Part shown: piece after piece, positions 5,605-34,022 of the stretch | Position numbering within the stretch: the first letter of the stretch is position 1 | Layout of the letters: every line of letters starts with the position of its first letter | NCBI GenBank assembly: GCA_015062445.1 | Contig: SUUQ01000007.1 | Coordinates: forward strand, 9,831 to 73,830 | Source: Alphaproteobacteria bacterium | GTDB taxonomy: Bacteria > Pseudomonadota > Alphaproteobacteria > Rs-D84 | DNA: 64,000 bases | Reading direction: 5' to 3' | Position numbers and translations under genes: made by a program | The notes under the pieces: generated by a model | The model's input: the letters and a program-made list of their open reading frames with translations, nothing else | Databases searched by the model: none | What the model was told of the DNA's origin: nothing

Positions 5605-5697
5605 GATGTGTTGTTTGCCAAAGAAAAGGAGAAAAAATCCTAATATTTGTAGATTTTTATTGAATTTTATTTTAGTATATTGAAAAAGGTTTATTTT

Positions 5698-8600
5698 ATG
5701 GCTTTGTTCAATAATAAAATTCAATCGTTTGATAATATTAACAATCGTCTGGTTGATGATTTGAAGGCGGAAATTAAAAAGCATTCCAAGTTATCCATAG
5801 CGGCAGCTTGTTTTTCAATATATGCATATCAAGATTTAAAGAAACAGTTGGAATCTGTTGATGAACTGCGCTTTATTTTTACGTCACCAACCTTCCTAGG
5901 GGCAAATAATAGTAAAGAACAGCGTGAATTCTATATACCACGTTTGGAACGTGAACAGAGTCTGTATGGGACAGAATTTGAATTACGTTTGCGCAACCAA
6001 ATGACCCAGAAAGCCATATCCAAGGAATGCGCCGAATGGATTAGAAACAAAGTTCAGTTTAAGTCAAACAAGACAAATCGTCTGATTCAGCCCTTTATTA
6101 ATATTGATGATAAATATACTTATTTGGGAATTAACGGCTTTACGACAACAGATTTGGGAACAGAAAAAGGCAATGCGCTGGCGATGTTTATAAATCGTCT
6201 TGAGGCAGAAAACAGCAAACAGTATCTTAATCTGTTTAATGAAATCTGGAATAATTCGGAACAGCTGGAAGACGTTAAGCAAAAGATTTTAGAGCATATC
6301 GAAACAATTTATGCAGAAAATGCCCCAGAATACATTTACATGGTCACCTTGTATAATATTTTCAAAGAATTTTTGAATGATATTTCAGATGACGTTTTGC
6401 CAAATGAGGCAACAGGATTTAAACAAAGTGAAATTTGGAACAAGTTGTACACATTCCAAAAAGACGCGGCACGTGACATTATACATAAACTGGAAAAGTT
6501 TAATGGGTGTATATTGGCTGACTCGGTTGGGTTGGGTAAAACGTTTACTGCGCTGGCGGTTATTAAATACTATGAATGTCGTAACAAGAGTGTCTTGGTG
6601 TTGTGCCCAAAGAAGTTACAAGATAACTGGACAACGTTCCGTGAAAATTATTTAAACAATCCTGTGGCCAAAGACAGATTGCGTTATGATGTTCTGTATC
6701 ATACAGACTTGTCTCGTGAACGTGGTTTATCTGGCAGTATAGATTTGGGTAAAATCAACTGGGGTAATTATGATTTGGTCGTAATTGATGAAAGCCATAA
6801 TTTCAGAAACGGTGGAAAAACGACCGTAGATGAAGATGGTATTGAATCTTACAATCGCTATAATCAGTTAATGGAAAAGGTTATCAAAGCCGGGGTTAAG
6901 ACCAAGGTTTTGATGTTATCTGCAACACCGGTGAATAATCGTTTTGTTGATTTGAAGTATCAGCTGGAATTGGCATACGAAGGCGCCGAAGATGAAATTA
7001 ACGACAAGCTGAATACTAAAAAAGGTTTAACAACGATATTCAATAACGCCCAGCGTGCATTTAATGATTGGAGTAAGTTGCCAGAAGAAGAACGTACAAC
7101 AGAAGCGCTGTTGGGGCGTTTGGATCAAGATTTCTTTGAAGTATTGGATTCTGTTACAATAGCACGCAGCCGCAAGCATATTGAAAAAAGTTATAATATG
7201 GCTGAAATCGGCAAGTTCCCAACCCGTCTGGACCCAGATAACAGATATCCTGCCATTACGTTGGATGAGTCATTGGGGCTAAATTATGATGATATCTTTT
7301 CTAAATTGGAACAGTTGTATCTGAGTGTTTATTCGCCTTCTAAGTTTATTTTTCCAAGCAAATTGGAAAAGTATGAAAAAAAGTATGGGAAAAAGGCAGG
7401 CAAGGGTATTTCGCTGACGGGACGTGAAATGGGGACCCGTAAATTGATGGCAATCAATTTGATGAAACGTTTGGAAAGTTCCTGGTATTCCTTTAATGAA
7501 ACCGCTAAATCGATTGCAACTAAGATAGACAGCGCAATATCTGCCATAGAACAATTTAAAAAAGCAAAATCAGCCCGTGGATTTAAGTTTAGCATCTTTG
7601 GTATTGCCGAGGACGAGGAAGATATTGATACAACCTATGGCGATTACAGTATCGATTTTAACGATATGGATTATGAAACCTGGCTGAAAGAACTGCAAAG
7701 CGACCAGGAAGTGTTCGCCGAAATTCTGCGTTTGTTCGGTCAGATGACCCCAGAACTTGATAATAAGTTGAATGAATTAAAGGCGATTATCAGACATAAA
7801 ATAGAAAATCCATTAAATGCAGACAATAAAAAGGTTTTGATATTTACCGCTTGGGCAGATACCGCACGATATTTGTATGACAACCTGTCTGAATATTTGC
7901 GTGAAGAATTTGGATTAAATACAGGTGTTGTCACGGGTGATATATCGACCAGTGATTCAACGATAAAACGTAATGGAGACAAGGGCAAGTTTGATTTTAA
8001 TGAATTGCTGACCATGTTCTCGCCAGTATCCAAAGATCGTGATAAGTTAAACAATATACCGTCTGGTGACATAGATGTTCTGATTGGTACGGACTGTATC
8101 AGCGAAGGTCAAAACCTGCAGGACTGTGATTATATGGTAAACTTTGATATCCATTGGAATCCGGTTCGTATTGTTCAGCGCTTTGGACGTATTGACCGTA
8201 TCGGCAGTCGTAACGACAAAATCCAAATGGTCAATTTCTGGCCAGAACGTGAATTGGATAAATATATCGACCTGACAAACCGTGTTCAAAACCGCATGGT
8301 TGGTGTTGCGGTTGCAGGGGCCGGTATAAACGTTATTGGTCAAGACCAGGAATTACAATATCGCAAGGCACAATTAGAAAAAATCCGTAAAGAAACCCCA
8401 GATTTAGAAGATATGAACACCGGGGTGAATATCATGGATTTGGGGCTGAATGAATTTAGGTTAGAGGTTGTAGATTATCGTAAATCGCATCCTGAAATAG
8501 AAACGGCGGCCCGTGGTCTGCACGCGGTTGTTGCAGCGACGCCAGATATGCCTGCTGGGACCATTTTTGTCCTGCGTAATGTGAATAATGGCGACAAGAT

Positions 8601-8952
8601 TGACAAGCAAAATCGTCTGCATCCGTTCTATATGGTGTACCTATCCGAAAACGGCGATGTTGTCTGTGATCATTTAAGTGCCAAAAAGCTGTTGGATATC
8701 ATGGGGCGCCTGTGCAAGGGACAAACGGCACCAAACAAATCCCTGTGCAAGGCATTTAATACAGAAACCAAAGACGGAATGGATATGCGGCATTATTCAG
8801 ATATGCTGAATAAATCTATCCAGACGATTATAAACGTCAAAGAAGAAACAGATGTTAACAGTATATTCAGTTTTGGTGGTTCAACACTTGGGGTAAATAA
8901 TATCCGTGGATTGGATGACTTTGAACTGATTTGCTTTGTGGTGGTAAAATAA
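5698..8952 (+). CDS. SNF2-family helicase with N-terminal degenerate PLD-like domain
   Basis: LADSVGLGKTF, VVIDESHNFRN, LMLSATPVNN, TDCISEGQNLQ and QRFGRIDRIG motifs; N-terminal SIAAACFSIYAY/FIFTSP region; no HxKxxxxD seen. Likely start ATG 5698. Confidence 0.88.
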   Translation: MALFNNKIQSFDNINNRLVDDLKAEIKKHSKLSIAAACFSIYAYQDLKKQLESVDELRFIFTSPTFLGANNSKEQREFYIPRLEREQSLYGTEFELRLRNQMTQKAISKECAEWIRNKVQFKSNKTNRLIQPFINIDDKYTYLGINGFTTTDLGTEKGNALAMFINRLEAENSKQYLNLFNEIWNNSEQLEDVKQKILEHIETIYAENAPEYIYMVTLYNIFKEFLNDISDDVLPNEATGFKQSEIWNKLYTFQKDAARDIIHKLEKFNGCILADSVGLGKTFTALAVIKYYECRNKSVLVLCPKKLQDNWTTFRENYLNNPVAKDRLRYDVLYHTDLSRERGLSGSIDLGKINWGNYDLVVIDESHNFRNGGKTTVDEDGIESYNRYNQLMEKVIKAGVKTKVLMLSATPVNNRFVDLKYQLELAYEGAEDEINDKLNTKKGLTTIFNNAQRAFNDWSKLPEEERTTEALLGRLDQDFFEVLDSVTIARSRKHIEKSYNMAEIGKFPTRLDPDNRYPAITLDESLGLNYDDIFSKLEQLYLSVYSPSKFIFPSKLEKYEKKYGKKAGKGISLTGREMGTRKLMAINLMKRLESSWYSFNETAKSIATKIDSAISAIEQFKKAKSARGFKFSIFGIAEDEEDIDTTYGDYSIDFNDMDYETWLKELQSDQEVFAEILRLFGQMTPELDNKLNELKAIIRHKIENPLNADNKKVLIFTAWADTARYLYDNLSEYLREEFGLNTGVVTGDISTSDSTIKRNGDKGKFDFNELLTMFSPVSKDRDKLNNIPSGDIDVLIGTDCISEGQNLQDCDYMVNFDIHWNPVRIVQRFGRIDRIGSRNDKIQMVNFWPERELDKYIDLTNRVQNRMVGVAVAGAGINVIGQDQELQYRKAQLEKIRKETPDLEDMNTGVNIMDLGLNEFRLEVVDYRKSHPEIETAARGLHAVVAATPDMPAGTIFVLRNVNNGDKIDKQNRLHPFYMVYLSENGDVVCDHLSAKKLLDIMGRLCKGQTAPNKSLCKAFNTETKDGMDMRHYSDMLNKSIQTIINVKEETDVNSIFSFGGSTLGVNNIRGLDDFELICFVVVK

Positions 8953-9590
8953 TGAATTGGCCAAAAACGACCGAAATCGGTAAATTTTTAGCAAAAGAAC
9001 GCTTTTACAGTCACGATGCTGTGTCTGGTGCCTTGAAACAAGCGCTGGTTGAAGATGTTGAAAAAATCACAATATCGCATCGTCTGGCACGTGATACATT
9101 GAATGTTGATGCAGGGACCGAGTTCCCGGAAATTTTGGTGCTGAATATCAAGTTAAGACAAAGCAAGGTAAATGAAAAACTGCTGGATGCGCTGGACAAG
9201 TCAATTCGTTCGGGCTATGTGTTGTTTGTACTAGAATATAACGAAAAAGAATGTGCATCTATTTCACACAAGACCGTAAATGCCAAGGAATGCTGTACAA
9301 TTGATAAACGCTGGACTACGGATTGGATAAATAAGGTAGATGTAGAATTACGTGGAACGACCCTTGATGCAATATACGCAGGCCTAATAGAACAAGTGTC
9401 ACAGGGGCGCGTAGCATCCGGTGCCTCAGGATTGGCAGATGCGGTAAATCGTGATATCGAACGTGCAAAATTAGAAAAACAAATCGCAGAATTAAACCAA
9501 AAATTGCGCAATACAGATCAACTAAATAAAAAGTTTGAAATCAAAGATAAAATTCGTACACTAGAGCAGAAGGTAAAGGAGCTGTCATGA
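8952..9590 (+). CDS. DUF4391 family protein
   Basis: Size, position between SNF2 helicase and type III mod, and C-terminal LEKQIAEL..K......Q.NKKFEI coiled coil; TAATG overlap with the upstream gene. Confidence 0.75.
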   Translation: MNWPKTTEIGKFLAKERFYSHDAVSGALKQALVEDVEKITISHRLARDTLNVDAGTEFPEILVLNIKLRQSKVNEKLLDALDKSIRSGYVLFVLEYNEKECASISHKTVNAKECCTIDKRWTTDWINKVDVELRGTTLDAIYAGLIEQVSQGRVASGASGLADAVNRDIERAKLEKQIAELNQKLRNTDQLNKKFEIKDKIRTLEQKVKELS

Positions 9591-11407
9591 TTGAAAAATT
9601 GAAACTGGAACAAAATCCAATGTCCCCAGTATTAGAAACATTGAAACAGGTTTGTCCTGGTGCTATTAATGAAGATGGAACTGTGGATTTTGATGTTTTA
9701 AAAACGGAATTGTCGGACAGTATAACCGAAGGAAAACGCGAAAGATATGAATTCGATTGGGTTGGTAAAGAAAATGCCAAGCGCGAGTATAAACGTAAAA
9801 TCAGAAAAACATTACGTCCAGTTGTGGCGGATTCTAAAAATTGGGAAACAACCAAAAATCTGTATATCGAAGGCGACAACCTGGATGCGTTGAAATTATT
9901 GCAAAAATCATACCTGCGCAAGGTTAAAATGATTTATATCGATCCTCCGTATAACACGGGAAATGATTTTGTGTATTGCGATGATTTTGCCGAAGACTGC
10001 AAAGAATATTTGGATAAAAAGGAAGTGTGTGATACAGATGGTAATCGTTTGTTTGTTAATAAACGCGATACGGGACATTATCATTCAAACTGGTGCAATA
10101 TGATGTATCCGCGCCTGAAGATGGCACGTGATTTATTAACAAATGACGGTGTTATTTTTATTTCAATTGATGACCACGAAGTTGCCAATTTGAAAAAAAT
10201 TTGTGATGAGATTTTTGGCAACGAGAGATTTGTTGGTATGTTAATTTGGAAAACCAAGACCGCTGCAAAGGGGGTGCCGACAAAAAATATGTTAGTTACC
10301 AACCATGATTATATATTGGTATACCAGGGCAAATCACAATTTAGATTTAATGGCGAAGACAGAGATGTTAGTAAATTCAGTAACCCAGATAATGACCCAA
10401 GGGGTGCATGGAAGGCAGACAACATGAAATCAACTGTGTCAACAAATGTTTTTTCTATAACAGATCCCAATACTGGGAATGTGTTTACAAAAAATTGGGC
10501 TTTTTCTAAAGAATCAATAGACAAAATGATCGCTGAAAACAAGATAATATGGCCTTCCTCTTCAGATGGTACACCAAGACAAAAAAGATTTATGAACGAA
10601 ATGACCAATGATACAACACCTTTACGAAGTCTTATCGGGGAATTTCAATCAGAAACCGCCACAAATAAATTAAAAGAGTTATTTGGTGGAAAAAAATTAT
10701 TTGATTTTCCAAAACACGTAGATTTAATAAAGTTACTGGTTAAGCAAGCGACAGAAGCCGATTCTTTAATACTTGATTTCTTTTCAGGTTCTGCGACGAC
10801 TGCCCATGCAATTATGCAACTAAATGCGGATGATGCAGGAACCAGAAAATACATAATGGTTCAGTTCCCAGAAATCCTCGAAGAGAATTCCGAAGCTTTT
10901 AAGGAGGGGTATACAAATTTGTGCGAAATCGGTAAAGAACGTATCCGTCGTGCCGGTGAAAAAATAAAGGCAGAAACCCCAGATAAAGATCTGGACATAG
11001 GATTCCGTGTTTTACGTGTCGATTCAAGTAATATGAAAGACGTTTATTACAAGCCTTCTGAAACGTCCCAGACAGGATTGCTGGATGCTGTAGATAACAT
11101 TAAAAATGACAGAACTGATATGGATTTGCTTTTTGGTGTTATGATTGATTGTGGCTTGCCACTGGATATGCCAATTGAAACCAAGGAAGTAAATGGCAAA
11201 AAGTATTATGTGGTAAATGGCAGTGATGCTTTGGTTGCGTGTTTTGAAGAAAATATTTCAGAAGATTTAATTCGTGAAATCGCAAGCCATAAGCCAATGT
11301 GCGCCGTTTTCAAGGACTCTTCATTTGCCGAAGCCAAGGACAAGGTAAATGTTTCAGAAATCTTCAAAAGCATATGTGGCGATGATAAAGCCCTGAAAAT
11401 ATTGTAA
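9587..11407 (+). CDS. mod: Type III restriction-modification methyltransferase (Mod)
   Basis: IEGDNLDALKLL, IYIDPPYNTG and ILDFFSGSATT motifs; ATGA overlap. Confidence 0.93.
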   Translation: MIEKLKLEQNPMSPVLETLKQVCPGAINEDGTVDFDVLKTELSDSITEGKRERYEFDWVGKENAKREYKRKIRKTLRPVVADSKNWETTKNLYIEGDNLDALKLLQKSYLRKVKMIYIDPPYNTGNDFVYCDDFAEDCKEYLDKKEVCDTDGNRLFVNKRDTGHYHSNWCNMMYPRLKMARDLLTNDGVIFISIDDHEVANLKKICDEIFGNERFVGMLIWKTKTAAKGVPTKNMLVTNHDYILVYQGKSQFRFNGEDRDVSKFSNPDNDPRGAWKADNMKSTVSTNVFSITDPNTGNVFTKNWAFSKESIDKMIAENKIIWPSSSDGTPRQKRFMNEMTNDTTPLRSLIGEFQSETATNKLKELFGGKKLFDFPKHVDLIKLLVKQATEADSLILDFFSGSATTAHAIMQLNADDAGTRKYIMVQFPEILEENSEAFKEGYTNLCEIGKERIRRAGEKIKAETPDKDLDIGFRVLRVDSSNMKDVYYKPSETSQTGLLDAVDNIKNDRTDMDLLFGVMIDCGLPLDMPIETKEVNGKKYYVVNGSDALVACFEENISEDLIREIASHKPMCAVFKDSSFAEAKDKVNVSEIFKSICGDDKALKIL

Positions 11408-11425
11408 TACGAGGGGGATTTTCAG

Positions 11426-14400
11426 ATGGCAAATGTTGTTCAAAGATATAAACACCAGCAGTTTCAAACAGATGCTTGTAACGCTATTTGTAATGTATTC
11501 ATAGGTCAACCAAACGTAGGGGCTGAAATATATAAAATGGATCCAGGTAACTCTGGTGCACAAACCTTATTGATTGAGTCAAATGATGCGTATAAAAATC
11601 ATAGGATAGAAATTTCTGAAAGCCAGCTCAAGGATAATATCAGAAAAGAACAGATAAAAAACGGCATCAAACCAATTGATGAAATTGCAGGGTATGAACC
11701 TAAAAAAGAACTTAATTTGTCGGTTGAAATGGAAACGGGTACTGGTAAAACATACGTGTATATCAAGACAATTCATGAACTGCACAAACGTTATGGTTGG
11801 ACCAAATTCATCATAGTTGTACCTTCTATCGCTATACGTGAAGGAACTTACCATTCTTTCATGACGACAGAAAAACATTTTAATATGGAATATAGCGACA
11901 CATTGAAATTTTTCATTTATAATTCTGCACATTTACAGGAAGTAGAAGATTTTGCAACTGATGAAAACATCCAGGTAATGATTATAAATGCCCAGGCGTT
12001 TGCAACGAATAATGCGGACAGCAGGATTTTTACCGCTAAACAAGCAGAAAAGTTCAAGGGGCGCAGTCCTATTGAAGTTATTGCAGAAACAAATCCCATT
12101 ATTATTTTAGATGAACCGCAGTCAACCAGCGGTACAGCAACAGTAAAAAAACTGCATGATTTTAACCCTTTGTTTATATTGCGTTATTCTGCTACACATC
12201 GTGATGAATATAATATGCTGTATAGATTGGATTCAATAGATGCTTATAACCAGAATCTGGTTAAAAAGATCGCGGTTAAAGGTATTGCTGTGCGTGGAAA
12301 TACAGCAACAAATGGATATGTATATGTTTCGAAAATAGATGTAAGACCTGGCAAAGATCCAACCGTTTGGCTGGAAATAGATCATCAGGGTGCTAATCGC
12401 TTGACCAGAAAAATTATGCGCTTTGAAGAAAAGGACGATTTGTATGTAAAATCAGGCAAGCTTGCAGAATATCAGGACCGCTGGGTTGTCAGCTTTATCA
12501 ATGGATTTGATAAAACGGTAACTTTTACAAACGGGATTATTCTGGCCGAAGGTAAATCTGTTGGTGATATGAACGAAGATCAGTTACGCAGAGTACAAAT
12601 ACGCGAAACTATTCGTACACATTTAGAGAAAGAAGAAACATTGTTTAATAAAAATATCAAGGTGTTATCACTATTCTTTATTGATGAGGTTGCTAAGTAT
12701 CGTCCAGATAACAACGAGAACGGTCTGTACAAGCAGATGTTTGAAGAAGAATATCAGTTTGCTATGGATAGGCGATTGGAATTGCTGGGGCTGAACCCTG
12801 AATATGAAGAGTTTTTAAAACAGACACATCCTGACACATGTAATGAAGGGTATTTTTCAAAGGATAAGAAAGGCAAACTAAAGGATACTAATGGCGCTTC
12901 CGATGCGGATAGAGATTCGTATGATTTAATTATGAAAAACAAAGAGCGCTTATTGTCATTTGATGAACCCGTTCGTTTCATTTTCTCGCATTCTGCATTG
13001 AAAGAAGGGTGGGATAATACAAATGTATTTCAGATTTGTGCATTGAAAAATACCGACAGCAACACAACTACTCGTCGTCAAGAGCTGGGGCGTGGGATGC
13101 GTTTGTGTGTCAACCAAAACGGTGAACGTATGGACGAGGCCGAGGTTGGTGAAAATGTTCACAAAATAAATGTGTTAACTGTCATTGCTTCTGAAAGCTA
13201 TGAGCAATTTGCAGCAGCATTACAGGATGAGTACAAAAAGGCCACAGAAGGTCGTTTGCAAAAGATTTCAGAAGATATGTTTGTTGGTAAGATTGTGACA
13301 TTTAATGACCAAGAACATAAGATAACTAAAGAAGAAGCTGGTGATATTGTGTACCATTTCACGGTTCAGCAATATATCGATAAAAACAGACAGTTGACTA
13401 GTAAATACTATGAAGCAGTAAAAAACGATACTTTTGTTGCACCAGAAGGTTTTAAGACGTCAGAAATCACCAGCTTAGCTGACAGAACAACGATTAAAAT
13501 TACTGATGCTGGCAGAAAAAGAGTACCGCAAAAGTTGAACAGAAAGAATTTTGAAAAAGCAGAATTTCAGGAACTATGGAATTTAATAAATCAGAAATCT
13601 TTCTATACTGTTGACTTTAAAACCGAAGAGTTGGTAGATAAGGCAATAAAGTCATTAGACGCTAAATTGCAGGTTACCCCCCTAATAGTTGAAATATCGA
13701 ACTCTGGTCTAAAAAGCATCTCGGATAATGCTGATTTAAATATGGCTAAGGGCAAGACCAGCATAGAACGAATTGAAGTAGCGGAAATAACCCAACCGTT
13801 TGACCTGATTGGTGAAATCGCAAGGGAAACGGCTTTAACTAGAAAAGCTGTTGCGCAAATACTGACAGGTATTCGTGCGGATGTCTTTGATAAGTTTAAG
13901 GCCAATCCCCAAGAATTTATTAAAAATGCAATTGATTTGATAAATGAAGCAAAAGCTATTTCGGTAATAGAGCATATAGAATATAATCCATTGGAAGAAC
14001 GATTTAGTACAGATATATTTACAAAACATGAACTAAATGTCCTGGAAGATAAATCTATAGAAACTCCAAATCACAATATCTATGAACGCGTTGTTTATGA
14101 TTCCAATATAGAAAGAGATATGGCAAAAGAGTTAGAGTGCCAGGAAGATGTGAGTGTTTATACCAAACTGCCAAATGACTTTTATATTAGCACCCCAATG
14201 GGAAAATATCATCCGGATTGGGCCATAGTCTTCAAGGCGGGAAATGTTAAACATATTTACTTTGTTGCAGAAACCAAGGGCGTCCCTCCAGAAGAATTAG
14301 AAATAAGTCTGAAGGATATAGAAAAGGCAAAAATCAGGTGCGCAAAAAAGCATTTTGCCAAAATAAGTAGCGACAAAGTGAAGTATGATGTCGTTAATAA

Positions 14401-14434
14401 CTATGAAAATTTATTAAAAATAGTTATGAGCTAA
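11426..14434 (+). CDS. res: Type III restriction endonuclease (Res)
   Basis: EMETGTGKTY, IILDEPQ, FSHSALKEGWD, QELGRGMRL; C-terminal PD...ETK nuclease motif. Confidence 0.93.
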   Translation: MANVVQRYKHQQFQTDACNAICNVFIGQPNVGAEIYKMDPGNSGAQTLLIESNDAYKNHRIEISESQLKDNIRKEQIKNGIKPIDEIAGYEPKKELNLSVEMETGTGKTYVYIKTIHELHKRYGWTKFIIVVPSIAIREGTYHSFMTTEKHFNMEYSDTLKFFIYNSAHLQEVEDFATDENIQVMIINAQAFATNNADSRIFTAKQAEKFKGRSPIEVIAETNPIIILDEPQSTSGTATVKKLHDFNPLFILRYSATHRDEYNMLYRLDSIDAYNQNLVKKIAVKGIAVRGNTATNGYVYVSKIDVRPGKDPTVWLEIDHQGANRLTRKIMRFEEKDDLYVKSGKLAEYQDRWVVSFINGFDKTVTFTNGIILAEGKSVGDMNEDQLRRVQIRETIRTHLEKEETLFNKNIKVLSLFFIDEVAKYRPDNNENGLYKQMFEEEYQFAMDRRLELLGLNPEYEEFLKQTHPDTCNEGYFSKDKKGKLKDTNGASDADRDSYDLIMKNKERLLSFDEPVRFIFSHSALKEGWDNTNVFQICALKNTDSNTTTRRQELGRGMRLCVNQNGERMDEAEVGENVHKINVLTVIASESYEQFAAALQDEYKKATEGRLQKISEDMFVGKIVTFNDQEHKITKEEAGDIVYHFTVQQYIDKNRQLTSKYYEAVKNDTFVAPEGFKTSEITSLADRTTIKITDAGRKRVPQKLNRKNFEKAEFQELWNLINQKSFYTVDFKTEELVDKAIKSLDAKLQVTPLIVEISNSGLKSISDNADLNMAKGKTSIERIEVAEITQPFDLIGEIARETALTRKAVAQILTGIRADVFDKFKANPQEFIKNAIDLINEAKAISVIEHIEYNPLEERFSTDIFTKHELNVLEDKSIETPNHNIYERVVYDSNIERDMAKELECQEDVSVYTKLPNDFYISTPMGKYHPDWAIVFKAGNVKHIYFVAETKGVPPEELEISLKDIEKAKIRCAKKHFAKISSDKVKYDVVNNYENLLKIVMS

Positions 14435-14902: not shown

Positions 14903-15685
14903 TTATTTTGTTTCACACAGTTCAATAATCTCCAACAAATCGTCGGGGATATAGGTTTTGGCCTGGTCGATTAGTTCGGGTGGAATGCCGTAATAGGCCT
15001 CGGCGACGGAGCCTGTGATTGCGGCGATTGTATCGCTGTCGCCACCTATTGATATCGCATTGCGGATTGCGTCTTCAAAGTCCGTTGACTCAAAAAAACA
15101 TTGCAGGGCGGGCGGTACCGTTCCCTGGCACGAAGAATCCCAGTCATAGTATTCCTGTAAATCCGCCAAGCAGTCGCATGTCGGGTAATAGTTGTTGCGG
15201 ATGTATTCGGCTATGTCGTCTTTGCTGTGGCCGTTGCGTGCCATGAATATAGCAACGGCAACCGCCTCGGCGCCCTTGATGCCTTCGATATGGTTGTGTG
15301 TCGGGGATGTGACCAGGTATGACAGGCGTTTGACTTCTGCGATATTTTCGCCAAACCACCCGGCGGCAGATACTCGCATCGCCGCCCCATTGCCCCAGCT
15401 GTTATACGGACCCATAGTCGGGTCATTCAGCCATTCCAAAAACATACCGCCATATCCTTTGTTCGGATATGCCTTGCCAACAACTCGCATAGTGTCGGCT
15501 GTGATTTGGCTCAGGTCGCCACCTTGCTCATGCCATTGTTTGATTGCGCTGGCCACTGCTATGGACATACAAGAATCATCCGTGATATAGCAACGGTCGG
15601 TCATAAAAGGGAAGTTCTTGGACCGGATATTTGCAAATTCATAAACAGACCCGGCAATGTCGCCAATAATCGCACCAAACAGCAT
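14903..15685 (-). CDS. ADP-ribosylglycohydrolase (DraG/ARH family)
   Basis: GAIIGDIAGS, TDDS, SWGNGAAMR, CQGTVP and GGDSDTIAAITG motifs; SD AAGGAG. Confidence 0.92.
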   Translation of the reverse strand: MLFGAIIGDIAGSVYEFANIRSKNFPFMTDRCYITDDSCMSIAVASAIKQWHEQGGDLSQITADTMRVVGKAYPNKGYGGMFLEWLNDPTMGPYNSWGNGAAMRVSAAGWFGENIAEVKRLSYLVTSPTHNHIEGIKGAEAVAVAIFMARNGHSKDDIAEYIRNNYYPTCDCLADLQEYYDWDSSCQGTVPPALQCFFESTDFEDAIRNAISIGGDSDTIAAITGSVAEAYYGIPPELIDQAKTYIPDDLLEIIELCETK

Positions 15686-15917: not shown

Positions 15918-15993
15918 TGGTGCCGGTTGTCGGACTTGAACCAACGACCTACTGATTACAAATCAGCCGCTCTACCAGCTGAGCTAAACCGGC
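15918..15993 (-). tRNA. tRNA-Thr (TGT)
   Basis: Reverse complement GCCGGTTTAGCTCAGCTGGTAGAGCGGCTGATT-TGT-AATCAGTAGGTCGTTGGTTCAAGTCCGACAACCGGCACCA; 76 nt with encoded CCA. Confidence 0.97.
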
Positions 15994-16081
15994 AATGCCA
16001 ACCAATTATACATATCTGGAACGCAAACGCAAGCAAAAAATCATAAAACATGTGTCCAGGGGTAAAAATCATTTATGGTAT

Positions 16082-16110
16082 TTGATTTTTTTCATTTTTT
16101 GGTGTAGTAT
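16082..16110 (+). promoter_or_regulatory. Sigma70 promoter of RNA leader A
   Basis: TTGATT, 17 bp, TG-TAGTAT (extended -10). Confidence 0.7.
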
Positions 16111-16116
16111 ATAGTC

Positions 16117-16295
16117 TGACATAGCGGTTGCTGTGTTGGGCGTCGAAACCCGTTTAATGCGTTGTGTCCGCGGGGACAAAAAACACCTTCAACTGATTGG
16201 TTGGAGGGTGGTGATATACAAAAATAAGCCCGCTATTTTCAACGCATTATAGTTTCGAACCTCCAACCACCTGCCTGTGTACGGTGGTTTTTTGT
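16117..16295 (+). ncRNA. Structured attenuator/antisense leader, copy A (C4/CI-like layout)
   Basis: Two 5' hairpins; tcgaaac (16143-49) pairs with gtttcga (16252-58); taatgcgttg (16155-64) pairs with caacgcatta (16240-49); ggttggagg (16199-207) pairs with cctccaacc (16260-68); terminator aaccacc/ggtggtt plus U-tract. Confidence 0.7.
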
Positions 16296-16297
16296 TT

Positions 16298-16393
16298 GTG
16301 TACATACAAGCATACCCGGGTGTGGCAATAACAGTGTTGGGTCTGTCGTTTGTTGTATGGCCAATTGTTATTGTTTTAACAAAGAATTCATGA
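16298..16393 (+). CDS. Possible 31-aa single-transmembrane peptide
   Basis: GTG start; MYIQAYPGVAITVLGLSFVVWPIVIVLTKNS; possible SD GGTGG lies in the terminator 3' arm. Below ORF-track cutoff. Confidence 0.35.
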   Translation: MYIQAYPGVAITVLGLSFVVWPIVIVLTKNS

Positions 16394-16426
16394 TACGATA
16401 ACCTGTGTCAAAAAAAAGAAAACAAG

Positions 16427-17482
16427 ATGACAAAAGAAAAAGAAGTTGCAAAAAAACAAAACTATATGACATTTGAAGAAATGGCCAAGGTTTTTTTGAA
16501 AGAAAAAATTAACATAAGACAGGGAGAGCTTGGTAGTCTATATCACGATCTGGTTTACAAAAGAGAGTTACCAAGAAGTTATTGGTCCTATACATATTGT
16601 TCCGAGGAGGAGAAAATGCTTCTTGACCAGGTGTTTGGTGTCCATCAAGATTTGCAAAATCCAGATGCAAAAAAATTCTTGGAAAATCTTCAAATTATTA
16701 TTGGTTCCAGATTTGCTGTAAATCCATTTCGGGCAGAGATAGATTATATTATAGTCAAACCAGAACAAATGGCGGATGTGTTCTTGAAACTGGCTGATAC
16801 CGAGATAAAGGATGAAAAGATTAAGTATGATGCCCTGAAATATTTAACAGGCAGTAATGTTTTGAAAAAAAGAAAAGACCTGTGGGCAAAAATATTAAAA
16901 AATCCAAATTCGGTAACATACGATTATAAATTGGCAATAATGGCACTTGATAAAGCCGATCCAGATTTGAAAAAGATATATTCCGCAATGGAGAAAAAGG
17001 TAAAAGTAACAATTGTCAATGAAAGTGAAAACAGATTGCCAGATTTTGATAAATTGAACTATACCAAGGTGCACTTGCATGATGCGGCAAAGTATATTGA
17101 TGCAGATCTGGGGGCGCAGGTAGAGGCAATGTATTTTGGCAATGACGGTGCGGAATTGGAAGAATTCCTGGCCCAGGTTGAAAAGTCGTCCAGTCTGAAA
17201 ATTACAGAACTGACTGCCCAGGTTGAAGGGCTGAATAAGCAGCTGAAGACCACAGAAAACCAGCTGAAACAGACGGCGGGCGAACTGGAAAAGGCGCAGG
17301 CCGAAAATCAAAAGCTGGCCAATGCCAACGAAAAACAGGCAGATAAATTAAACATGGAAAAAAAGTACGTCAAGCAACTGTTGAATGCGGCCGAAGAGTT
17401 GCGTATCGGTATTGGCAGTCGTGGTATCAGAAATATGCGTAAAGTTATGAACTATGTCCAGCAGGCACAGCAAACTAGATAA
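16427..17482 (+). CDS. Hypothetical protein with C-terminal coiled coil
   Basis: 351-aa ORF; heptad-rich last third; followed by a terminator. Confidence 0.75.
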   Translation: MTKEKEVAKKQNYMTFEEMAKVFLKEKINIRQGELGSLYHDLVYKRELPRSYWSYTYCSEEEKMLLDQVFGVHQDLQNPDAKKFLENLQIIIGSRFAVNPFRAEIDYIIVKPEQMADVFLKLADTEIKDEKIKYDALKYLTGSNVLKKRKDLWAKILKNPNSVTYDYKLAIMALDKADPDLKKIYSAMEKKVKVTIVNESENRLPDFDKLNYTKVHLHDAAKYIDADLGAQVEAMYFGNDGAELEEFLAQVEKSSSLKITELTAQVEGLNKQLKTTENQLKQTAGELEKAQAENQKLANANEKQADKLNMEKKYVKQLLNAAEELRIGIGSRGIRNMRKVMNYVQQAQQTR

Positions 17483-18918: not shown

Positions 18919-19872
18919 ATGCCAGAGATGAAAAATAGATTTTGCTTACTTATTGTTTTTAGTGTGTTTTTACCTCACTCTCCCGCAGCTGCAAATGTCT
19001 TGCCACTGAATGATGCACTGCGTGCCACATATACCGCATGCGTTGGCATTGATGATGAATTAGCCGACCTGAAAACAATGGCCGGTATAAATACCGCAAT
19101 TACATCTGTTGGAACGGCGACCGGTGTTGGTGCAACTGTGACGGGGTTGGTCAAGGCCGACAAAGACAAGCAAATCGAAATAAAACTGGAAAAACTGCGC
19201 GAAATAGAACAAAAAAATCCAGGCCTACAATCCACAGATGCTGAATGGGATAATTTTGAATCCGGCCTGAAAACAGAACTGGCCAATGCAAAAAAAGAGG
19301 TTGAAAAATATCAGGCAGAAATTGAAAAACTGAATCAGCAATCAAAAAATTTGGGCAATTGGCGTACTGGCCTGATGGCTGGTGCAACCGCAACCAATGC
19401 GGCTGGTGCAATTATTGCCGGCACGAATAAAGTAGATGCCGACCTGCAAACCCAAATAAACAATTGTATCGGCAGTGTCAAAACACTGCAAAATTCTATG
19501 ATGCAGGCACGTATAAATGGCGAAGATGTGTCCGAGGCAGAAACAATCGCATCCGCCTGTGGCGAATACGAATATGTCGATGTGTCCAAGATAAATAATC
19601 GTGCCAAAGGTGCTTTTGTATCATCCACCGTTGGTGCGGCGACCGGGTTGGCCGGAACAATTACATCCGCCACAGCCAATTCAAACAAAATACGCGGTGC
19701 CCAGGGTGATGCGGCACAACAGAAAGAAAAAAATCTGAATACTGCATCAAATGTGTTGGCGGGTGCAACAACTGTGGCTTCGGCAACGGCAACTGTATTC
19801 AACGCAACACAGATATCCGCAATAAAAAAAGTGGCCGCAGTCGCCGAAAAATGTACGGGGGTATTGAAATGA
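18919..19872 (+). CDS. Secreted Ala/Thr/Gly-rich helical protein with coiled coil
   Basis: Signal peptide; four small-residue hydrophobic segments; ATGA overlap with the next gene. Confidence 0.7.
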   Translation: MPEMKNRFCLLIVFSVFLPHSPAAANVLPLNDALRATYTACVGIDDELADLKTMAGINTAITSVGTATGVGATVTGLVKADKDKQIEIKLEKLREIEQKNPGLQSTDAEWDNFESGLKTELANAKKEVEKYQAEIEKLNQQSKNLGNWRTGLMAGATATNAAGAIIAGTNKVDADLQTQINNCIGSVKTLQNSMMQARINGEDVSEAETIASACGEYEYVDVSKINNRAKGAFVSSTVGAATGLAGTITSATANSNKIRGAQGDAAQQKEKNLNTASNVLAGATTVASATATVFNATQISAIKKVAAVAEKCTGVLK

Positions 19873-29173: not shown

Positions 29174-29194
29174 TTTTATCCTCCATGTTTTTTG

Positions 29195-29372
29195 ATTAAC
29201 AAAAAACCGCCAATGATAAACAAAAGCGGTTGGAGGTTAAAGACTATTCGAATAGATAGTGCTGTTTATTTATATATATCACAGCCCCCCAACCAATGTT
29301 GGAGATAATGTTTATGTCATCCCTGACAATTCGAACGGGTCTTTACACCCCACACCGTTTTTTTCAGTGCCA
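29195..29372 (-). ncRNA. Structured attenuator/antisense leader, copy B
   Basis: On the minus strand taaagac pairs with gtcttta, ttcgaat with attcgaa, ggttggggg with cctccaacc; terminator aaccgc/gcggtt plus U-tract just before the HTH SD. Confidence 0.72.
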
Positions 29373-29679
29373 ACAAATTATACCTGATACTTTTCTTAGA
29401 TTCAAATAAATTATTCATTGCTGTATTTATTTTCAAAAAATCCCCCGATTGGGGGATTTTTTTATTTCGCCGTTTACATAAAATCATTGTTAACCCATTT
29501 GTCATAATGCGTTCAACAATCTTTTCCGGCATCAGCATTTTACCGTTTTCAATTCGTATCAAATCACGATGAGACACCCCCAGCATGTTTGCACATTGGC
29601 ATCTTTTCAGGTTCAAAGTATTGCGTGCATGTCGCAGGTAATGACCAAAGTATTTGGTGTCTACTAAAACAACTGCCAT
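29317..29679 (-). CDS. XRE/Cro-like HTH protein, copy 2; stop codon lost, 48-aa read-through extension
   Basis: First 72 aa identical to copy 1; TAA replaced by AAA. Confidence 0.8.
   Translation of the reverse strand: MAVVLVDTKYFGHYLRHARNTLNLKRCQCANMLGVSHRDLIRIENGKMLMPEKIVERIMTNGLTMILCKRRNKKIPQSGDFLKINTAMNNLFESKKSIRYNLLALKKTVWGVKTRSNCQG
29377..29405 (-). promoter_or_regulatory. Sigma70 promoter of leader B
   Basis: TTGAAT, 17 bp, TATAAT. Confidence 0.8.
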
Positions 29680-29699
29680 TTTTATCCTCCATGTTTTTT

Positions 29700-29866
29700 G
29701 ATTAACAAAAAACCGCCAATGATAAACAAAAGCGGTTGGAGGTTAAAGACTACAAGTAAGAGTAGTGTTGCTTATTCAACATATTCACAACCCTCCAACC
29801 ATCCTGGTCGGAGAAATTTATACTTACTTTCGGGTCTTTACACCCCACACCGTTTTTTCAGTGCCA
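29700..29866 (-). ncRNA. Structured attenuator/antisense leader, copy C
   Basis: On the minus strand taaagac pairs with gtcttta, aagtaag with cttactt, ggttggagg with cctccaacc; same terminator as copy B. Confidence 0.72.
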
Positions 29867-29870
29867 ACAA

Positions 29871-29899
29871 ATTATACCTGACACTTTTCTTAGATTCAA
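29871..29899 (-). promoter_or_regulatory. Sigma70 promoter of leader C
   Basis: TTGAAT, 17 bp, TATAAT. Confidence 0.8.
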
Positions 29900-29954
29900 A
29901 TAAATTATTCATCGCTGTATTTATTTTCAAAAAATCCCCCAGACGGGGGATTTT

Positions 29955-33735: not shown

Positions 33736-33813
33736 AACAAAACCGCAGGTTGAAAGACCGGCGGGAAATAGAGTTTAGGATGGTTGGCAGAGCGGTCGAA
33801 TGCGGCGGTCTTG
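33736..33813 (+). repeat. 78-bp direct repeat: leader plus 5' half of tRNA-Ser, ending in the anticodon loop
   Basis: Matches 33891-33968 apart from a few leader bases; tRNA part 33778-33813 identical up to CTTG. Confidence 0.93.
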
Positions 33814-33932
33814 CATACGAGTAAGTAAGGCAAACGCAGTGTGGCCGAACGCTAACGAGTGGTGAGCAGCACCGCCAGGTGCGGTCAGCGAACAAAACCG
33901 TAGGTTGAAAGACCGGCGGGAAATGAAGTTTA

Positions 33933-34022
33933 GGATGGTTGGCAGAGCGGTCGAATGCGGCGGTCTTGAAAACCGTTGTGGGGGCAACTCCACCGGGGGT
34001 TCGAATCCCTCACCATCCGCCA
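33933..34022 (+). tRNA. tRNA-Ser (TGA)
   Basis: GGATGGTTGGCAGAGCGGTCGAATGCGGCGGTCT-TGA-AAACCGT...long variable arm...GGTTCGAATCCCTCACCATCCGCCA; 90 nt. Confidence 0.96.

Follow-up and report, generated by a model that had tools for sequence, protein, structure and literature searches.

Leader A, a member of an RNA family of uncultured gut Alphaproteobacteria, is a likely two-state transcription attenuator of the Brt type

Introduction

The Bartonella regulatory transcripts Brt1-9 are followed by trp genes, which encode helix-turn-helix (HTH) proteins of the XRE type (Tu et al. 2016, PMC5387305; review PMC8070961). According to these papers, the ~200-nt Brt1 RNA is abundant and the downstream trp1 is nearly silent, deletion of the 3′ stem-loop de-represses trp1, and a reporter behind brt1 rises as heme falls (the reporter in PMC8070961). 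The same texts present Brt as unique to Bartonella and give it without a covariation-backed structural model; a two-fold model for Brt is not described in the Results of PMC5387305 or the passages of PMC8070961. In this work, we analyzed leader A, an RNA leader at about 16117-16294 on the + strand of a 64,000-nt stretch of DNA from an Alphaproteobacteria bacterium (GenBank assembly GCA_015062445.1, contig SUUQ01000007.1, positions 9,831 to 73,830), which is called the window and to which all coordinates refer unless another locus is named. Leader A is one of three copies within the window; the other two, leaders B and C, are on the minus strand at 29178-29404 and 29684-29910, each preceding a gene for a 72-amino-acid (aa) XRE protein, and both align with leader A. 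Compensatory changes in the family back two alternative folds of this RNA, and it likely acts as a transcription attenuator.

Further RNAs invite comparison. The c4 RNA of phages P1 and P7 is a free RNA of about 77 nt that arises via RNase P processing. sRNA-Xcc1 is known from Xanthomonas as a free RNA of 88 nt (PMC2996969). In integron cassettes it precedes symE (10.1101/2025.06.18.660453), and in APSE phages it precedes an ORF6N gene (10.1101/2020.03.17.996009).

Results and Discussion

Covariation backs two alternative folds of leader A

Two folds of leader A share segment C. In fold 1, the leader forms one long composite hairpin (A:A′, B:B′, and antiC:C) that leaves C′ free; in fold 2, C:C′ closes a three-way junction containing P2 and P3 and takes the first 3-4 nt of the terminator 5′ arm. 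The elements of leader A are as follows.

16082-16110, + strand: candidate sigma70-type promoter, TTGATT at 16082-16087, a 17-nt spacer, and TAGTAT at 16105-16110
16118-16137, + strand: hairpin 1 at the predicted transcript 5′ end, GACATAGC 16118-16125, loop GGTT 16126-16129, GCTGTGTT 16130-16137, as in the minimum free energy (MFE) fold
16138-16151, + strand: hairpin 2, GGG/CCC, with seed A (TCGAAAC, 16143-16149) in its loop
16155-16164, + strand: segment B, TAATGCGTTG, pairing with B′, CAACGCATTA, at 16240-16249
16165-16178, + strand: hairpin TGTCC-GCGG-GGACA
16186-16194, + strand: antiC, CCTTCAACT, partner of C in fold 1, the terminating fold
16199-16207, + strand: C, GGTTGGAGG, with antiC and C′ as alternative partners
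16199-16268, + strand: core three-way junction of fold 2, consisting of C, P2, P3, A′, and C′
16208-16231, + strand: P2, with an A/U-rich loop
16232-16236 and 16249-16253, + strand: P3, GCTAT and ATAGT, with B′ (16240-16249) in and beyond its loop
16252-16258, + strand: A′, GTTTCGA
16260-16268, + strand: C′, CCTCCAACC
16265-16294, + strand: intrinsic terminator, AACCACC 16265-16271, an 11-nt loop, GGTGGTT 16283-16289, then T6

Family counts are based on 121 distinct full-length copies kept after filtering from the matches listed. For fold 2, 95.3% of the cells were paired in 120 model-aligned copies, with double changes at 17 of the 20 pairs; none of 500 shuffles matched this and slid controls gave 27-63%, the alignment having been fitted to the structure of the model so that the pair counts lean toward it. 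An RNAalifold consensus also supported a stem-closed core with two inner hairpins. For fold 1, all seven pairs of the A:A′ helix, which connects the hairpin 2 loop with the 7 nt immediately 5′ of C′, covaried with 95% of cells paired (121 sequences), and one of these pairs occurred as AU in 48, CG in 44, UA in 10, and GC in 6 copies. Cognate pairing was better than non-cognate pairing in 118/121 copies for A/A′ and in 100/117 for B/B′. Among 18 leader-A-like sequences, B:B′ had double changes at 8 of 10 pairs, and fold 1 as a whole (A:A′, B:B′, the GUCC hairpin, antiC:C, and P2) was 95.1% paired with 15 doubly changed pairs, as compared with 37-47% in slid controls and none as good among 500 shuffles.

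The antiC:C helix was 93-100% paired, its changes being one-sided C-to-U replacements that yield G:U pairs. In copies where C is unlike GGTTGGAGG, however, antiC, C, and C′ covaried, as in locus L118 (ctcctgaac / GTCAGGAGG / CCTCCTGAC, in that order) and L061 (ccttctgcc / GGCAGGAGG / CCTCCTGCC), with a similar joint change in L071 and L042. This joint change in divergent copies indicates that both pairings of C are selected, and the comparative data show that both folds are under selection. Together with the overlap between C′ and the terminator 5′ arm, this bears out the preliminary description of this stretch, which had read leader A as an RNA switch.

The pairings further make fold 1 and fold 2 mutually exclusive. 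In 114/117 copies, the B:B′ duplex runs up to or into the 3′ strand of P3, so P3 and B:B′ cannot coexist, and the 7-bp A:A′ helix takes the first C of the hairpin 2 stem and nearly the whole of the 8-nt loop; hairpin 2 is present in fold 2 and disrupted in fold 1. We also considered a single static fold, in which A:A′ and B:B′ would hold the junction as pseudoknots concurrent with P3, leaving only antiC/C/C′ to switch. Such a pseudoknot can be drawn on paper, as the C:C′ helix encloses A′ but not A. The reach of B:B′ into P3, however, leaves no linker to cross a 7-10-bp helix, A:A′ uses up hairpin 2 as described above, and all fold 1 helices nest with antiC:C free of knots. We therefore rejected the pseudoknot on steric grounds (B:B′ versus P3) and regard a static fold as very unlikely.

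A terminator with a perfect stem and a U tail was present in 111/121 copies, and its 5′ arm starts 3-4 nt inside C′ in 103 of these 111; in leader A, the first 4 nt of this arm are part of C′. The predicted energy of leader A up to C′ was -57.4 kcal/mol in fold 1 and -48.3 kcal/mol in fold 2, the family means being -50.5 and -46.1 kcal/mol, with fold 1 more stable in 91/121 copies and the two folds nearly balanced in leaders B and C. Since fold 1 is predicted to be the stabler one, by 9 kcal/mol in leader A, termination would be the default. The complete leader A has an MFE of -68.5 kcal/mol (z = -4.7), which none of 200 shuffles equaled. Sequence conservation is nearly complete in the P2 loop, GAWAU...AAUAAG.

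Every element that the preliminary description had listed for leader A was located position for position, among them the perfect 10-bp B/B′ duplex and the 7-bp terminator stem followed by T6. Some of its readings call for qualification. The promoter, which it had called an extended -10, is a promoter-like site whose -10 falls on a nearly invariant TATAAT column 7 nt 5′ of hairpin 1 in the 121-member alignment, but its TG, at -14/-13, is one position off the canonical place; from this site, transcription would start near 16117. The GGTT loop of hairpin 1 is present; across the family, the stem persists while its sequence varies, and the loop shows no sequence conservation. The TGTCC/GGACA hairpin exists, being 100% paired and almost invariant among the leader-A-like subgroup, but it is not the extra feature it was taken for, as most family members carry it (leader B as TGTCA/TGACA).

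A proposed mechanism of attenuation

We consider it likely that leader A attenuates transcription in cis by switching between two states, in the manner of Brt. RNA polymerase would start near 16117 and transcribe the ~178-nt leader. By default, its 5′ half (A in hairpin 2, B, and antiC) would pair with its 3′ half (C, B′, and A′) as the long composite hairpin; C′ would remain free, the terminator at 16265-16289 with its U-run would form, and transcription would stop, yielding a short structured RNA and leaving the downstream gene off. Some signal may shift the balance, whereupon C:C′ would close the three-way junction with P2 and with P3 carrying B′ in its loop. Because C:C′ claims 4 of the 7 nt of the terminator 5′ arm, polymerase would then read through into a 351-aa orphan open reading frame (ORF) and possibly a 31-aa ORF, the two candidates for control by the switch in the preliminary description. 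In this model, transcripts would start and stop at the predicted sites and read-through would drive the orphan gene. As the signal, we would rank first a small ligand or a protein that binds the conserved core, and second a trans-acting RNA; for a ligand, the one lead in published work is that a Brt1 reporter depends on heme (PMC8070961).

This topology is the classical 1:2 / 2:3 / 3:4 attenuator design. It is formally identical to that of trp-type ribosome-mediated attenuation, in which antiC, C, C′, and the terminator would be regions 1-4 behind a leader peptide. An ATG-started ORF was suitably placed in only 48/121 copies, however, and without a Shine-Dalgarno (SD) sequence, and region 1 itself lies within conserved helices. 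We rejected leader-peptide attenuation, as no leader ORF was conserved among the 121 copies, and consider it hardly credible.

Several points weigh against the proposed cis-acting attenuator. The promoter of leader A matches the consensus at 8/12 positions, which is weak, and was not called by a consensus scan. Given the 9 kcal/mol advantage of fold 1 in leader A, switching would take a strong effector. The cargo of the family is very diverse, unlike that of a classical metabolite riboswitch, and the orphan ATG of leader A lies 159 nt after C′ without an SD, as compared with 40-60 nt for typical family cargo; leader A could thus be a stranded module whose original cargo has been replaced. The RNA runs provided assembled (Logan) contigs of relatives, which stop resembling the window at ~16298.

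For sheep, goat, or deer gut samples, the DNA runs X1-X6 contain 95-98% of the words sampled from the stretch. Family members are present in RNA libraries. In metatranscriptome X31 at 90% likeness, several contigs, some without mismatches, matched the core of leader B (29226-29304), whereas the HTH gene and the 5′ half of the leader had none; when likeness was lowered to 80%, whole leaders were spanned by longer contigs that derive from other copies.

Comparison with the Bartonella Brt RNAs

The leader A family and Brt are both alphaproteobacterial and multi-copy, and both consist of a ~180-200-nt RNA that has a promoter of its own and immediately precedes a gene; in both, termination or attenuation sets the 3′ end of the short RNA. 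The RNA upstream of the HTH gene on plasmid pBGR3 folds into the same series of elements as the leader A family. In five Bartonella plasmid copies, the order is hairpin 1; hairpin 2 with A in its loop; B; a GUCC..GGAC-type hairpin; antiC; C; P2; P3 with B′ in its loop; A′; and C′. P3 is CUGA/UCAG in the four copies other than that of pBGR3, and the A:A′ helix of the five copies is compensatory (UAAAAG/CUUUUA, AAUAAAG/CUUUAUU, and AGUAAAG/CUUUACU), B:B′ covarying too in the five-copy alignment. The copies, at L152 26478-26695 and in L153-L156, have the triple motif CCCGGAA/UUCCGGGAG/CUCCCGGAA and two covarying long-range helices.

The architecture is the same as that of Brt in every element and common descent is likely, though covariance models do not connect the two families: with filters off, R1 (a covariance model of the core from C to C′) and R2 reached at best 11.1 and 10.0 bits on pBGR3 (E about 0.5), the best R2 match being on the wrong strand. 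The two also differ in detail. The C motif is UUCCGGGAG in Brt versus GGUUGGAGG in the leader A family, and the P2 loop differs as well. In plasmid Brt, C′/A′ pair with the SD region of the HTH gene and not with a U-tailed terminator. XRE regulators are the cargo of leaders B and C and of ~30/105 family cargos; Brt, however, always precedes trp, whereas most cargo here is not a regulator and leader A stands before the domain-less 351-aa orphan. The Brt1 experiments introduced above, with an abundant short RNA, a silent trp1, and de-repression on deletion of the stem-loop, match the default-off attenuator proposed for leader A.

The Brt-like design is thus found in more than 100 copies from uncultured gut Alphaproteobacteria and viral contigs, with compensatory changes backing both folds. 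It gives a concrete mechanism, a terminator versus a masked three-way junction, for a widespread RNA absent from Rfam, and the same pairings can be read in Brt, the controller of a Bartonella adhesin regulator. The identity of the trigger would reveal how reduced-genome symbionts control their surface repertoire. Leader A alone is a smaller gain, as one intact member with its cargo swapped.

Comparison with sRNA-Xcc1, c4, and riboswitches

At gathering thresholds, Rfam matched only two tRNAs in the window, and sRNA-Xcc1 (RF02221) was the only match by E-value, leader A scoring 34.9 bits, which is below the gathering score of 53. Two copies in locus L120 reached 38.8-39.6 bits, one of them divergent with a GC-rich closing stem. 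The likeness to sRNA-Xcc1 consists of a 9-10-bp closing stem, two inner hairpins, an A/U-rich AUACAA-like loop, a tail starting ACC, and a position upstream of a cargo gene in mobile cassettes; divergent family members (L120 5302-5397 and L083 6330-6424) have Xcc1-like GC-rich closing stems. On the other hand, sRNA-Xcc1 is without a described upstream masking half or overlapping terminator, and leader A is without an integron context.

The likeness to c4 lies in two features. Segments a1 and b1, upstream of a stem-closed RNA, are complementary to its inner segments b′ and a′ and nest in the same order, and the 9-bp closing stem is followed by ACC, with an antiC-like ACGCCC just upstream in P1. 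The c4 stem, GGUGGGGCG/CGUCCUGCC then ACC, resembles that of the family, GGUUGGAGG/CCUCCAACC then RCC. In contrast to c4, whose a2/b2 targets lie downstream at the ribosome-binding site before icd-ant in P1, no such targets were found in the 150 nt after C′ of the leaders; the leader A family has an intrinsic terminator overlapping the 3′ strand of the closing stem; the stem-closed form, which is the MFE form in P1, is the less stable one in this family; and leader A is without an immunity or antirepressor context.

These likenesses raise the alternative that leader A is an antisense RNA gene of the c4/sRNA-Xcc1 type, in which the 70-90-nt core from C to C′ would be cut from a precursor, for example by RNase P acting where the closing stem begins at its 5′ side, and the B′ loop and A′ would repress target mRNAs. 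The processed 70-80-nt species foreseen in the preliminary description would likewise be an analogy with c4 and sRNA-Xcc1. The core is weakly but repeatedly like sRNA-Xcc1 (34.9-39.6 bits, E 2e-4 to 3e-3), which is itself a discrete 88-nt RNA (PMC2996969), P1 c4 has the same element order of a1, b1, and a closing stem holding b′ and a′, and locus L139 has core-only copies with a promoter directly in front. The k-mer depth of the metatranscriptome also peaks over the leader B core, but this peak is explicable by k-mers common to many copies. Cognate sites like a2/b2 were not found in the 150 nt downstream (61/115, equal energies), nor was a B-like site beyond chance in the window. The Rfam C4 (RF01695) and isrK models had no match at E up to 10 on 15990-16450, and R1 gave 6.3 bits on c4. 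What follows the core is the terminator overlapping C′, not a ribosome-binding site; the tail RCC/RCU is present after C′ in 104/121 copies, and the same bases are also terminator. In Bartonella, the abundant species given in the Results of PMC5387305 is the full-length RNA of ~200 nt. We therefore consider the antisense alternative unlikely.

The core-only copies of L139 (2756-2981 and 2930-3155, minus strand) are two cores 174 nt apart without the 5′ masking half (hairpin 2, A, and B), at least one of which has a TATAAT-like box ~20 nt before C. They resemble free small RNA genes of the Xcc1 type.

An ON-type riboswitch such as the pbuE adenine riboswitch resembles the family in that the closing helix of a junction domain competes with the terminator 5′ arm and in that domain and platform covary. 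It differs in that the leader family has a complete upstream mask pairing with three parts of the domain, and a cargo without a common metabolic theme. More speculatively, with a modest chance of being right, the core may be the sensor of a new class of riboswitch or riboregulator: a junction with the GAWAU...AAUAAG P2 loop, masked by its own 5′ half, would answer a single, global cue from the host, either a dedicated protein or a small molecule (heme, for example), by which small-genome gut Alphaproteobacteria would switch on XRE regulators and fast-evolving secreted or surface proteins in one step. Brt, sRNA-Xcc1, and c4 would then be branches of the same ancient self-masked design.

The family and the strand on which it acts

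Leader A is an intact member of a large family without an Rfam entry. More than 120 copies were collected from Candidatus Enterousia and related metagenome-assembled genomes (MAGs) of gut Alphaproteobacteria plus a few viral contigs. Among the viral contigs, a pattern scan identified four true relatives, and a stricter pattern on one-genome-per-species contigs gave at least 120 stretches, nearly all from Candidatus Enterousia or gut/rumen alphaproteobacterial MAGs; among the matches listed, several leader copies were often seen per genome. In the window, R1 found only the three known copies, at 64-84 bits in sense and 21-27 bits in antisense (leader A, 64.3 versus 23.7), and it also picked up further, more divergent copies within the collected loci.

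The strand is informative as well. One-sided changes in the helices were C-to-U opposite G, giving G:U, and never A·C, which fits an RNA of this strand and not DNA. This bears on a reading at the DNA level, by which the three CTCCAAC/GTTGGAG copies would be XRE operator half-sites or an attC-like recombination site of a gene cassette. The motif sequence is strongly conserved, XRE regulators are the commonest cargo, the cassettes sit at differing positions around tRNA-Thr, and sRNA-Xcc1 is found in integron cassettes (10.1101/2025.06.18.660453). Besides the strand-specific substitutions, however, the model scores are strongly strand-asymmetric, the distance between antiC and C ranges across the family from about 3 to 14 nt, and promoter, terminator, and gene always keep the same orientation. 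A DNA-level element is thus highly improbable.

Some copies are arranged in series. In L083, four leader cores stand in tandem on the minus strand (64-135, 284-358, 735-806, and 958-1033), ~220 nt apart with no room for cargo between them, and two have divergent closing stems (GGGGCTGGTG.. and GGGGTTGGACAG..). They appear to form an array of units that consist of the leader alone.

The copy-specific segments pair within the leader

The A/A′ and B/B′ segments are far more variable than the rest of the leader: leaders B and C are 97% identical outside B/B′, and their B/B′ pairs are entirely different. Such private segments could form an address code, in which terminated leader RNAs would act in trans on nascent leaders of the same locus, making a private, possibly bistable switch. 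Fold 2 would suit this by placing B′ and A in hairpin loops, as in kissing antisense RNAs. The partners share one molecule and nest in one hairpin, however, and intramolecular pairing explains all the covariation; orthologous leaders differ at B/B′ by ordinary, stepwise compensatory changes. We therefore consider A/A′ and B/B′ to be structural helices, and an address code quite unlikely.

Searches for targets agreed with this. Within 150 nt after C′, cognate A/B sites were better than non-cognate ones in 61/115 cases, which equals chance (mean energies of -11.39 cognate versus -11.42 non-cognate), and extra B-like sites elsewhere in the window did not exceed chance, with 16 found versus 37 expected. 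The suggestion in the preliminary description that leader A has a specificity of its own was therefore not upheld: A/A′ and B/B′ pair intramolecularly with compensatory variation, and no cognate target was found downstream or elsewhere in the window.

Cargo and mobility of the RNA module

Across the family, the first cargo ORF with an SD typically begins 40-60 nt downstream of C′, immediately after the U-run, leaving no space for a separate promoter. Pfam searches of 105 distinct cargo proteins matched HTH_31 in 23, HTH_19 in 18, and HTH_3 in 14 (overlapping), ~30 being of XRE type in all, followed by Listeria-Bacteroides repeats in 6, ABC transporters in 3, and a UvrD helicase in 1; the remaining proteins are without a domain, many having signal peptides. 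The three ABC-transporter leaders (L016 8409-8637, L057 1904-2132, and L131 5389-5618) have no U-tailed terminator after C′, and the start codon follows C′ by 39 nt. The expression platform therefore varies, and these leaders probably represent its translational version.

The surroundings of leader A are as follows.

15918-15993, minus strand: tRNA-Thr(UGU), placed by ARAGORN and Rfam
16295-17482, + strand: cargo slot of leader A, a 130-nt spacer with a possible 31-aa hydrophobic ORF, then the 351-aa orphan ORF at 16427-17482

With tRNA-Thr on the minus strand and leader A on the + strand, the two are transcribed divergently, as had been described. A gene with a Pfam match to ADP-ribosylglycohydrolase (14903-15685, minus strand) adjoins tRNA-Thr. 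A consensus scan gave no promoter-like site on the + strand between the leader A terminator and the orphan ATG. The 351-aa coiled-coil ORF had no Pfam domain and no homolog but itself among 5.8 billion proteins. The candidate short hydrophobic ORF at 16277-16393 would encode 38 aa from GTG 16277 or 31 aa from GTG 16298, and the GGTGG of the terminator 3′ arm sits 10 nt before the latter. The stretch 16296-16426, which spans the candidate 31-aa ORF, is almost invariant among strains.

Locus L043 is the closest relative among the matches listed. Its block of tRNA-Thr and leader is 90% identical up to 16298, its slot holds a different gene, for a 70-aa membrane protein with its ATG 46 nt after C′, and similarity returns at a U32 peptidase gene. 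In L048, the leader-cargo unit lies on the opposite side of tRNA-Thr. The exchanged slot gene of L043 and the mixed cargo, ~30% XRE and otherwise unrelated secreted, orphan, ABC-transporter, and helicase proteins, support the earlier statement that the RNA module moves independently of the HTH gene. Both the switch and the portability of the module are thus well supported.

A gene for a 317-aa secreted protein (18919-19872), 2.6 kb downstream of leader A, is without a leader of its own in the window; homologs of this protein are direct leader cargo in L008, L110, and L117 and, more distantly, in L132.

Other features of the window

A terminator-like hairpin, AAAATCCCCC-GATT-GGGGGATTTTTT, occurs in five copies (28925, 29431, 56234, 59920, and 63249) and bounds gene units including both HTH cassettes; it draws many unrelated metatranscriptome contigs. 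An 83-nt direct repeat, 94% identical, lies at 33736-33818 and 33891-33973, and its second copy enters an intact tRNA-Ser(UGA) at 33933-34022. A fragment with the tRNA-Ser 5′ half and its upstream region is thus duplicated 155 nt upstream, which may be a trace left by the integration of an element at this tRNA. Upstream of leader A, a block of long ORFs (5680-14434) ends in a 1002-aa ORF (11426-14434) that, by eye only, looks like the Res subunit of a type III restriction system.

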